This document shows, piece by piece, positions 35,415-49,001 of a stretch of 64,000 nt of DNA. The notes below the pieces were generated by a model that saw nothing but the letters and a program-made list of their open reading frames with translations, had not been told where the DNA came from and ran no database searches. The stretch is from the NCBI RefSeq assembly GCF_055900595.2, contig NZ_CM148325.1; one strand, given 5' to 3'. Positions within the stretch are counted from its first letter, which is position 1, and the number at the start of each line of letters is the position of its first letter. Made by a program: the position numbers and the translations under genes.

Positions 35415-36569
35415 TCATGCCTCTTTGACCCACAGCTGCGGAAAACGTGCTGGTGCAAAACGCAGGGTTATGATCATCAGCCCAACGACGCACAGCGCAT
35501 GAAACGCCCAGTCCATCAGGTAATTGCCACTGATACTACGCAGCACACCAGAAAACCACGGAGCAAGCCCGGCAATGATAAAACCGATCCCCTGCATAAA
35601 CGCCACCAGTTTGCCAGCAATAGCGGGTTGCGCAGAGTGATCGAGCGCCAGCAGCAAACAGAGCGGAAATGCGACACCCAGACCTAACCCACACACCATT
35701 GCCCACAATACCGGCAATTGCAGCGGCAGCCAGATAAAGCCGCAGAAACCCACCAGTTGTAACGCCAGTGCCAGCATTAATAGTTTGCGCCGATCCTGAT
35801 GGCGAGCCATAGCAGGCATCAGCAATGCCCCTGCGGCTTGACCAAGCGTCATCAACGCCAGCAAGGAACCGCTGTACTGCGTGCTGGCACCGATCTCAAT
35901 ATAGAAGGCGGGTAACCAGGCAATCAGACTGGCGTAACCGCCGTTAATCAGACCGAAGTAAACACCCAGCGTCCAGGCGCGGGGAGTGAAGACTACGCGA
36001 ACCGGAGTGGTTGTTGTCTTGTGGGAAGATACGACCTCGCGGGAGCTTTGCCACCACCAGGCAAAGAGCGCAATAATGGCAGGCAGCGCCCACCAGGCGA
36101 GAGTCTGGAACCAAATCTCGCTGTGTTGAACTAACCAGGGCGTCAGGGCGGCACCAAGTCCACCGCCGCCCATCAGAGCCGCAGACCACAGCCCCATCAC
36201 CAGTGGCGTGCGCTGCTGAAACCGCCGTTTAATCACCGAAGGCATCACCGCCTGAATGATGCCGACCCCCACTCCACCGAGCAGTGCGCTGCTAAGCAGC
36301 AGCACACTTTGAGGGTAAAGCTCTCGCATCAATGCGCCGACGGCTATCAACAACAAACTGATGGCGACGCTGCGACGTTCGCTGACATGCTGATGAAGCC
36401 AGCTTCCGACCAGCGCCAGCCCGCCCATGGTGACCACCGGCAGAGCGGTCAACAGGGCAGCCACGCTAAAGCTCATTCCGCTCGCCTGGCGCAATTGCGG
36501 TAGCAGTGGCCCGACGGAGGTGAGCAGTGGTCGCATATTAAGACCAATCAGCACCAGAACCAGCAGCAT
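35415..36569 (-). CDS. cynX: Cyanate MFS transporter
   Basis: ORF 35415-36596; start set at MLLVLVLIGLNMRPL... giving 384 aa. Confidence 0.88.
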   Translation of the reverse strand: MLLVLVLIGLNMRPLLTSVGPLLPQLRQASGMSFSVAALLTALPVVTMGGLALVGSWLHQHVSERRSVAISLLLIAVGALMRELYPQSVLLLSSALLGGVGVGIIQAVMPSVIKRRFQQRTPLVMGLWSAALMGGGGLGAALTPWLVQHSEIWFQTLAWWALPAIIALFAWWWQSSREVVSSHKTTTTPVRVVFTPRAWTLGVYFGLINGGYASLIAWLPAFYIEIGASTQYSGSLLALMTLGQAAGALLMPAMARHQDRRKLLMLALALQLVGFCGFIWLPLQLPVLWAMVCGLGLGVAFPLCLLLALDHSAQPAIAGKLVAFMQGIGFIIAGLAPWFSGVLRSISGNYLMDWAFHALCVVGLMIITLRFAPARFPQLWVKEA

Positions 36570-46241: not shown

Positions 46242-46285
46242 GTTGTCCTCGTCATTTGTAGGGTCGAGATATTTTTCGTTGTGTT

Positions 46286-47176
46286 TTATTTCGTCTGGCT
46301 ACGGGCAAACAGGTCGTCGAGCTTTTCTTCGTACTGGTAGTAGTTAATGCTTTCATACAGCTCGTTGCGGGTCTGCATGGTGTCGATGACGCTTTTCTGC
46401 GTGCCTTCCTGGCGCAGGACGTTGTAGACATGTTCAGCGGCGCGGTTCATTGCGCGGAAAGCAGAAAGGGGATACAGCGCCATTGCGACATGGGCGCTGC
46501 GTAATTCGTCGGTGGTAAACAGCGGCGTGGCACCAAATTCAGTAATGTTGGCAAGGATCGGCACCTGCACCGCATCGGCAAACTGGCGGTACATGGCGAG
46601 TTCGGTAATTGCTTCCGGGAACAACATCTCGGCACCCGCTTCAACATAGGCCTGCGCACGCTCGATCGCCGCATCCAGCCCCTCTACCGCCAGCGCATCG
46701 GTGCGCGCCATGATCACAAAATCAGGATCGGTTTTCGCATCCACCGCCGCGCGGATCCGATCCACCATCTCTTCTTTCGAGACGATCGCTTTGTTCGGGC
46801 GATGACCGCAGCGTTTTGCTCCAACCTGATCTTCAATATGTAAGCCCGCCGCACCGGCTTTAATCATCGATTTCACGGTGCGGGCAACGTTAAAGGCCGA
46901 AGAGCCAAAACCGATATCCGCATCCACCAGCAGCGGCAGCGAGCAGACGTCGGTGATACGACGAATATCAGTCAACACATCATCAAGAGTAGAAATACCG
47001 AGATCCGGCAACCCCAGCGAACCTGCCGCCACACCACCGCCGGAGAGATAAATCGCCTGATATCCGGCACGCTGCGCCAGCAGCGCATGGTTGGCGTTAA
47101 TGGTGCCGACAATCTGCAATGGATTTTCTTTAGACAGTGCAGCGCGAAACGCTTTACCTGGAGAGTGTAGAGACAT
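46286..47176 (-). CDS. prpB: 2-methylisocitrate lyase
   Basis: 296 aa [28 protein letters not shown]... Confidence 0.93.
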
Positions 47177-47222
47177 AGCCCATCCTTTGTTATCAACTTG
47201 TTATTTACGTTGATAAACTCAA

Positions 47223-47238
47223 AGCAAGGGGTGTGCCA
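47223..47238 (-). promoter_or_regulatory. sigma54 promoter for prpBCDE: TGGCAC-ACCCC-TTGCT on the minus strand
   Basis: Perfect match to the -24/-12 consensus TGGCAC-N5-TTGCW, about 47 bp upstream of the prpB ATG. Confidence 0.8.
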
Positions 47239-47313
47239 CAATTACCTGGATGAAATTAAATGTTATATTTCAATTTGTTATAGATAAAGCCATGAAGTAA
47301 TCCGCAAATATGC

Positions 47314-47371
47314 GTTTCAGTTAACGTTTCAGGCAATGTTTCACTGCGTTTCATTGCAACAATTATGAAAC
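47314..47371. promoter_or_regulatory. Array of GTTTCA hexamers (four direct, one inverted as TGAAAC): candidate PrpR enhancer
   Basis: GTTTCA at about 47314, 47326, 47338, 47348 with 10-12 bp spacing and TGAAAC at 47366; sits 75-135 bp upstream of the sigma54 promoter. Confidence 0.4.
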
Positions 47372-47414
47372 AAGACTAAACCCAATATTCGGTTTCTTAA
47401 CTTTGCGGTGCGCT

Positions 47415-49001
47415 ATGGCACATCCACCACGGCTGAATGACGACAAACCGGTTATCTGGACGGTATCTGTAACGCGGCTGTTCGAGCTGTTTCGCGATAT
47501 CAGTCTCGAGTTTGATCACCTGGCGAATATCACCCCTATTCAGCTTGGCTTTGAAAAAGCGGTGACCTACATCCGCAAAAAACTGGCCAGCGAACGCTGC
47601 GACGCCATCATTGCCGCTGGCTCTAACGGTGCGTACCTGAAAAGCCGCCTGTCGGTACCGGTGATTCTGATAAAACCGAGTGGCTACGATGTGTTACAGG
47701 CGCTGGCAAAAGCCGGAAAACTCACCTCTTCTATCGGCGTTGTCACCTATCAGGAAACCATTCCGGCACTGGTAGCGTTTCAAAAAACCTTTAATTTGCG
47801 CCTCGACCAACGTAGCTACATTACCGAAGAAGACGCACGCGGGCAGATTAACGAGCTAAAAGCTAACGGCACCGAAGCGGTGGTCGGTGCGGGGCTGATT
47901 ACCGATCTGGCAGAAGAAGCCGGAATGACCGGAATTTTTATTTATTCCGCCGCCACCGTGCGCCAGGCGTTCAGCGATGCGCTGGATATGACGCGCATGT
48001 CGTTACGCCATAACACTCACGATGCCACCCGCAACGCCCTGCGTACTCGTTACGTGCTGGGCGATATGCTCGGTCAATCACCACAGATGGAACAGGTACG
48101 GCAGACTATTTTGCTGTATGCCCGCTCCAGTGCGGCGGTGTTGATTGAAGGGGAAACGGGGACGGGCAAAGAGCTGGCGGCCCAGGCGATTCATCGGGAA
48201 TATTTTGCCCGCCACGATGCGCGACAGGGCAAAAAGTCGCATCCGTTTGTTGCCGTCAACTGCGGGGCGATTGCTGAATCTCTGCTGGAAGCGGAGCTGT
48301 TTGGCTATGAGGAAGGAGCGTTTACCGGCTCGCGACGCGGAGGACGCGCCGGGCTGTTTGAAATCGCCCACGGTGGCACGCTGTTTCTTGACGAGATAGG
48401 CGAAATGCCGCTGCCGTTGCAGACCCGGCTACTGCGGGTGCTGGAAGAAAAAGAGGTCACTCGCGTCGGCGGGCATCAGCCTGTTCCGGTGGATGTGCGG
48501 GTTATTAGCGCCACTCACTGCAATCTCGAAGAGGATATGCAGCAAGGGCGTTTTCGCCGTGATCTGTTTTATCGACTGAGTATTTTGCGTCTGCAATTGC
48601 CGCCGCTACGCGAGCGGGTGGCGGATATTCTGCCGCTGGCGGAAAGCTTTTTGAAAGTGTCACTGGCGGCACTTACTGCGCCTTTTTCTTCCGCGTTACG
48701 TCAGGGATTACAGGCAAGTGAAACTGTGCTATTGCGCTACAACTGGCCGGGAAATATTCGTGAACTGCGCAATATGATGGAACGACTGGCGCTATTTTTA
48801 AGTGTGGAACCAACGCCGGATTTAACGCCGCAATTTTTGCAGTTGCTACTGCCGGAACTGGCGCGCGAGTCGGAGGAAACTCCCGCTCCACGTTTACTGA
48901 CGCCACAACAGGCACTGGAGAAATTTAATGGCGATAAAACTGCCGCGGCCAATTATTTAGGTATCAGCCGAACGACATTCTGGCGGCGGCTGAAAAACTG
49001 A
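47415..49001 (+). CDS. prpR: Sigma54-dependent transcriptional activator of the prp operon
   Basis: ORF 47403-49001; start set at [22 protein letters not shown]... giving 528 aa; AAA+ sigma54-interaction domain ([14 protein letters not shown]) and C-terminal HTH. Confidence 0.92.

Follow-up and report, generated by a model that had tools for sequence, protein, structure and literature searches.

Anatomy of the probable prpR/prpBCDE control region of Escherichia coli: a sigma-54 promoter, an upstream hexamer array and a leader repeat

Positions 47177–47414 of the DNA analysed here (a stretch of 64,000 nucleotides, hereafter the window) are, with high probability, the divergent prpR/prpBCDE control region of Escherichia coli, which has been characterised previously. 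The region is already known, and our readings of its promoter and of its enhancer match the established literature. As prpR-PprpB is a textbook example of a sigma-54 system and already serves as a tool, its rediscovery adds nothing categorical; the layout of the E. coli hexamers, their lineage-variable orientation and the hypervariable spacer that separates them from the promoter are minor points of possible use in promoter engineering and modelling.

Identity of the Locus

The region is bounded on one side by prpB (46286–47176, minus strand), which encodes 2-methylisocitrate lyase and is the first gene of prpBCDE, and on the other by prpR (47415–49001, plus strand), which encodes a sigma-54 enhancer-binding protein of 528 amino acids. 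Both genes were assigned from the list of open reading frames and from annotated E. coli genomes matching the locus, and prpR also from its Pfam domains, comprising a PrpR_N sensor, a Sigma54_activat AAA+ domain and an HTH_8 domain. The two genes diverge from starts at 47176 (prpB) and 47415 (prpR), leaving an intervening spacer of 238 bp with 36% GC. A 401-bp query across the region found matches in 5218 of 5426 complete E. coli genomes and no match in the other 208; every match listed for this query carries the prpR/prpB annotation, and the locus is 100% identical to annotated E. coli genomes.

In K-12 MG1655 all of the hexamers, the promoter core and the leader repeat discussed below are present and identical to those of the window. 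The window differs from K-12 PprpB by 11 substitutions, 8 of which fall between the hexamers and the promoter. The K-12 version of PprpB is the promoter of the propionate-inducible pPro vectors (Lee and Keasling 2005), and the E. coli prpR/PprpB region is reported in the literature to underlie both these vectors and propionate biosensors.

Several further features of the locus were observed. The spacer between prpB and prpC is 44 bp in the window (46242–46285) versus 439 bp in K-12 MG1655. E. coli SCPM-O-B-9504 (L086 419–2467) carries a rearranged fragment between two IS1 copies, and a truncated prpR pseudogene adjoins prpB there. In the prpR leader or promoter area, a repeat search found the palindrome AAACCCAATATTCGGTTT (47378–47395, 20–37 nt upstream of the prpR ATG), which is kept in Escherichia and Citrobacter and could be an element of either. 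A scan of 47100–47500 for sigma-70 promoters and terminators found none, and the prpR promoter was not placed by it. An Rfam scan of 47000–47600 gave no family at the gathering threshold; its sole match, the Drosophila element HLE, scored 23.9 bits where the gathering score is 60 and was judged spurious.

The Sigma-54 Promoter

A first-pass annotation of this DNA had described a "perfect" sigma-54 promoter for prpBCDE. A motif scan places the −24/−12 core, TGGCACACCCCTTGCT, at 47223–47238 on the minus strand, where it is the only zero-mismatch occurrence of TGGCAC-N5-TTGCW in 64 kb and has its GG and GC doublets exactly 10 bp apart. The word "perfect" therefore suits the core, which is exact and unique, but not the extended consensus, which has a G after TGGCAC where the window has an A. 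In an alignment of 16 Enterobacteriaceae relatives, TGGCA[CT]-N5-TTGCT is invariant. Apart from this site, the window has a single near match to the core, TGGCACTGGCGTTACA (35758–35773, minus strand), with one mismatch.

Published binding data bear directly on this site. The 17-mer GTGGCACACCCCTTGCT upstream of prpB, identical in the window and in K-12, is the E. coli sigma-54 ChIP-seq peak OS01, for which a distance of 36 nt to the gene is tabulated (PMC4591121), and the prpR/prpB spacer was also selected by RpoN holoenzyme in genomic SELEX, where it appears as a gSELEX peak (PMC8743547). By way of the 17-mer identity with K-12, these data support the predicted binding of sigma-54 holoenzyme at the core in the window, and they bear out the assignment of the promoter to prpBCDE. 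Genetic data from Salmonella point the same way: papers citing Palacios and Escalante-Semerena (2000) report that expression of prpBCDE needs prpR, rpoN and ihf, and the wild type expressed the operon 45-fold more strongly than an rpoN deletion mutant did (PMC3844500).

The promoter is widespread. A scan for PrpB, with one genome per species, yielded 80 prpB loci from the Enterobacterales and Burkholderiales, 73 of which have a sigma-54 promoter (pattern TGGCA[CT]-N5-[TC]TGC[ATC]). It lies mostly 54–105 nt before the prpB ATG, and at ~205 nt in two Providencia loci. Setting the C of the −12 GC as position −12 predicts a transcription start at 47212 (minus strand) and hence a leader of 36 nt, which agrees with the distance given in PMC4591121 if, as we read it, the column concerned runs from the predicted start to the gene start.

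The Hexamer Array

Upstream of the promoter, plus-strand copies of GTTTCA begin at 47314, 47326, 47338 and 47348, with start-to-start spacings of 12, 12 and 10, and a single inverted copy lies on the minus strand at 47366–47371. The five hexamers (47314–47371) sit 76–133 bp upstream of TGGCAC, and the four direct copies and one inverted copy that had been noted 75–135 bp upstream are all where they were said to be. The whole window has 40 copies of GTTTCA over both strands, approximately one per 1.6 kb, and a cluster of five in 60 bp was reached in none of 300 first-order Markov simulations, in which the maximum was three.

The array can be divided into a proximal and a distal part. The proximal activator part (47314–47343, minus strand) comprises three direct copies that read TGAAAC in the prpB sense (47343–47338, 47331–47326 and 47319–47314), and in alignment the published enhancer of Salmonella and Citrobacter falls here. 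The distal part is a dyad, GTTTCAT-N10-ATGAAAC (47348–47371, minus strand; arms at 47348–47354 and 47365–47371), which was recognised by repeat search and conservation; it joins the inverted hexamer (47366–47371) to the first direct one, with a degenerate GTTGCA at 47355–47360. In orientation, the E. coli array has one exact and one degenerate left-facing copy and four that face right.

PrpR is said to have two dyad-symmetric sites. The PrpR enhancer consensus, CGTTTCATGAAACG, is quoted in Table 1 of PMC4987338 from a 2004 footprinting paper on Salmonella, and it consists of two hexamers of the kind found here. Together with the clusters kept upstream of the prpB promoters in 73 loci, this upholds the earlier suggestion that the hexamers form a PrpR enhancer. 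Set against the published sites, the half-site GTTTCA/TGAAAC is present in five exact copies, but the abutting palindrome CGTTTCATGAAACG is absent from E. coli, which has ATTGCCTGAAACG at the aligned position; for this reason we put forward the occupancy of the E. coli hexamers as a prediction.

Across the prpB loci, exact GTTTCA/TGAAAC is concentrated 80–220 bp upstream of the promoter and is almost absent elsewhere in the 600 bp. A 160-bp zone (70–230 bp upstream of the promoter) contains 2–7 exact hexamers, most often four, in 72 of the 73 promoter-bearing loci, compared with 0–1 in a prpB coding control, and the flanks extend the element to A-TGAAAC-R. The preferred start-to-start spacings are 17–18 for inverted copies, 6 for the abutting palindrome, and 11–12 and 21–22 for direct copies. 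In the alignment of 16 Enterobacteriaceae, Escherichia, Citrobacter, Kluyvera, Pluralibacter and Salmonella share the distal dyad GTTTCAT-N10-ATGAAAC; across all 16 sequences the block TGAAACGTTA(A/G)CTG hardly varies, and the middle proximal hexamer (TGAAACG) is invariant. In relatives, the promoter-proximal hexamer (47314–47319) reads TGACAC (Citrobacter and Salmonella among them), TGAAGC or TGGCGC, so that its exact form is specific to Escherichia. Citrobacter, Pluralibacter and S. arizonae carry the abutting palindrome CGTTTCATGAAACG, in whose place Escherichia, Pseudocitrobacter and Shimwellia have TGAAAC-N6-TGAAAC. The mix of orientations also differs elsewhere, with two copies facing each way in Shimwellia and Photorhabdus and four left-facing copies only in an Oxalobacteraceae MAG.

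Two observations on these loci stand apart from the array itself. In 24 loci the leader itself, downstream of the promoter, has one more exact hexamer (GTTTCA or TGAAAC), which precedes the ATG by 29 nt in Xenorhabdus/Photorhabdus and by 40 nt in Janthinobacterium. In addition, tblastn for PrpR found no prpR within 2.5 kb upstream of prpB in either the Janthinobacterium loci or X. kozodoii (L022, L040–L042, L046–L048, L050, L053, L054, L057 and L059), so a divergent prpR is not universal. These loci have the hexamer array and the sigma-54 promoter despite having no upstream prpR, and the place upstream of prpB is taken by genes for a metallo-beta-lactamase-fold protein and a chorismate-binding enzyme.

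It is very improbable, in our view, that the hexamers serve mainly the global carbon regulators Cra and/or CRP instead of PrpR. The idea has some basis, as the Cra consensus half-site is TGAAAC, and ACTGAAACGCATAT and CCTGAAACGTTAAC fit the Cra consensus RSTGAAWCSNTHHW with one and two mismatches, respectively. A Cra site in the prpB regulatory region is listed by Shimada 2011, as cited in PMC5829826, but a gel shift of Cra on prpB DNA was negative (PMC5829826), and prpB did not come up when the literature search covered the Cra ChIP-exo paper. As regards CRP, Lee 2005 is reported in PMC9452892 as having found that CRP activates both promoters, that its site overlaps the PrpR operator, and that mutation of this site abolished PrpR regulation. 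With up to three mismatches allowed, the CRP consensus has no match inside the hexamer array; the only match (47407–47422) lies over the prpR start codon, so that the scan did not pinpoint the published CRP site. The hexamer, moreover, is part of the PrpR enhancer consensus as published (PMC4987338), and hexamer clusters accompany prpB sigma-54 promoters into the Burkholderiales, which argues for PrpR as the primary reader of the hexamers.

The Activator-Promoter Spacer and Candidate IHF Sites

From one E. coli record to another, the spacer that separates the activator sites from the promoter is hypervariable, whereas the activator sites are nearly invariant. Of 5220 E. coli records, 5215 show at least 95% identity over a 76-bp hexamer block; over the adjacent 66-bp spacer (47239–47304), 4957 of 5197 records share only 80–90% identity with the window, and the spacer allele of the window is itself rare (at least 99% identity in 8 of 5197). 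These counts fit a strong constraint on the hexamers and a weak one on most of the spacer.

A consensus scan of this spacer gave an IHF-like core, TTTCAATTTGTTA (47268–47280, plus strand), which is one mismatch away from WATCAANNNNTTR and spans about −57 to −69 relative to the predicted start. IHF-like sites oriented in the same way recur at −68 to −80 in Citrobacter, Kluyvera, Pluralibacter, Providencia and others. The putative spacer site lies where an IHF bend would be expected at a sigma-54 promoter and fits the genetic requirement for ihf. An exact match to the IHF core consensus, TATCAACTTGTTA (47191–47203, plus strand), lies at +9 to +21, where it overlaps the leader repeat in its 3' arm and loop. 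Since the spacer candidate has one mismatch and the leader candidate is exact, any assignment of the functional IHF site is provisional.

The prpB Leader and Its Inverted Repeat

The prpB leader contains the Shine-Dalgarno sequence AAGGA (47183–47187, minus strand), preceded by a widely conserved ATAACAA. A repeat search also recovered the inverted repeat TTATCAAC-N11-GTTGATAA (47190–47216, minus strand; arms at 47216–47209 and 47197–47190). The arms (47190–47197 and 47209–47216) pair perfectly over 8 bp around an 11-nt loop, which confirms the repeat as first described except for a ninth base that had been counted in the arms and is unpaired. Perfect 8-bp inverted repeats with loops of 3–20 nt arise in 12% of Markov-1 versions of the 238-bp spacer, and the repeat is therefore not significant alone.

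The first-pass annotation had suggested an RNA hairpin as one possible role for the repeat, and the evidence speaks against it. A 5'-terminal hairpin in prpB mRNA that affects stability or translation is, we think, improbable. The 33-nt element would fold at −6.8 kcal/mol (z = −3.9, in isolation) if it were fully transcribed, but the predicted start at 47212 cuts the 5' arm (47216–47209), so the transcript would not contain both arms: from this start only CAAC/GUUG pairs, giving 4 bp at −2.0 kcal/mol (z = 0.15), and the full hairpin needs a start at least 4–6 nt further upstream. Conservation gives the hairpin some encouragement, in that the 6-bp arm core is kept in Escherichia, Citrobacter and Kluyvera (the two outer pairs mainly in Escherichia) among 19 leaders, and that a C to T change in the 5' arm of the E. 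coli variant CE0021a would keep a G-U pair. Yet the same 19 aligned leaders show no compensatory change and three uncompensated ones, including arm changes in Pluralibacter and Citrobacter R56. Departures from pairing are mostly via unpaired cells, and the single double change occurs in Salmonella, in which the helix is otherwise broken. Nor are prpB leaders structured as a family: 62 distinct leaders fold no better than their shuffles (mean z = 0.06), and no Rfam family matches. As a conserved RNA structure, we reject the leader hairpin on the predicted start geometry, the lack of covariation and the unstructured leaders of other clades.

A protein-binding DNA site in the leader, most plausibly a second IHF site at +9 to +21 or else a dimer operator with arms 19 bp apart, is a possibility that we regard as rather unlikely. 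In its favour, TATCAACTTGTTA matches WATCAANNNNTTR exactly, and because exact matches number only six in 64 kb over both strands, ~0.02 would be expected in this spacer. The leader sequence was also found by repeat search to be a 92%-identical direct repeat of the IHF-like site in the spacer. Its core is exact in Escherichia, Citrobacter and Kluyvera, has one mismatch in Pluralibacter and S. arizonae, and recurs exactly at +7 in a distant Enterobacteriaceae MAG. This conservation can also be explained, however, by the broadly conserved ATAACAA before the ribosome-binding sequence, which is kept in Enterobacterales leaders without the inverted repeat as well, and an IHF bend at +15 would have no obvious activating role at a sigma-54 promoter.

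Most likely, then, the leader repeat is not a separate device. We read it as the overlap of two conserved elements, with the initiation region supplying the 5' arm and a TAACAA-rich, IHF-like stretch beside the ribosome-binding site supplying the 3' arm. This reading without a separate function explains the conservation of the arms in Escherichia, Citrobacter and Kluyvera only indirectly, and a role at the DNA level is conceivable because the 3' half coincides with the exact candidate IHF core.

The sequence (G/A)TAACAA is itself a recurrent feature of prpB leaders. In most of those from the Enterobacterales (leaders L022–L079, for example L044 2397–2500), it immediately precedes the ribosome-binding sequence, often with another occurrence at the predicted start, and the X. 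mauleonii leader contains four copies of GTAACAA.

Proposed Mechanism of Regulation

We propose that PrpR, encoded immediately to the right of the control region, acts as an enhancer-binding protein activated by 2-methylcitrate. It would bind the A-TGAAAC-R array, which spans roughly −102 to −159 relative to the predicted start and comprises the distal dyad GTTTCAT-N10-ATGAAAC and three more right-facing copies 10–12 bp apart. The AT-rich spacer would be bent by IHF at about −57 to −69, allowing the PrpR oligomer to contact sigma-54 holoenzyme held in a closed complex on TGGCAC-N5-TTGCT. ATP hydrolysis would then open the promoter, with transcription beginning near 47212 and yielding a short, unstructured leader of 36 nt with AAGGA for ribosome binding, and cAMP-CRP would add catabolite control. 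In this proposal the PrpR half-site, sigma-54 binding and the dependence on PrpR, IHF and CRP are drawn from the literature, and the sequence features, their statistics and their conservation from the present analysis. From these together we infer the occupancy of the E. coli hexamers, the start of the transcript and the status of the leader repeat.

More speculatively, the PrpR enhancer might be organised not as two palindromes but as a helically phased array of 4–8 A-TGAAAC-R elements whose orientation can flip between lineages, with a putative second, downstream IHF site (+9 to +21) modulating the promoter. We consider this rather unlikely. If the array were of this phased and flippable kind, each PrpR protomer would dock independently and the array would template the assembly of the ring.

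Comparison with Known Systems

The closest counterpart is the control region of Salmonella enterica (Palacios and Escalante-Semerena 2000, 2004), which shares with that of E. coli the divergent prpR, TGGCA[CT]-N5-TTGCT (~63 nt before the prpB ATG), the distal dyad, the TGAAACGTTA(A/G)CTG block and an AT-rich spacer. In place of the palindrome CGTTTCATGAAACG of Salmonella and Citrobacter, E. coli has the direct repeats TGAAAC-N6-TGAAAC-N6-TGAAAC, and its spacer is ~25 bp shorter than that of Salmonella, which also lacks the leader inverted repeat.

The region also resembles the classical promoters that combine sigma-54, an enhancer-binding protein and IHF, such as Pseudomonas Pu with XylR, glnHp2 with NtrC and nifH with NifA. 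Like these, it has activator sites at approximately −100 to −160, a candidate IHF bend site between the activator sites and the −24/−12 element, and an AAA+ activator with a C-terminal helix-turn-helix. It departs from them in its activator sites, which in the classical promoters are two fixed palindromes and here appear as a phased array of 4–8 short elements with a lineage-dependent mix of orientations.
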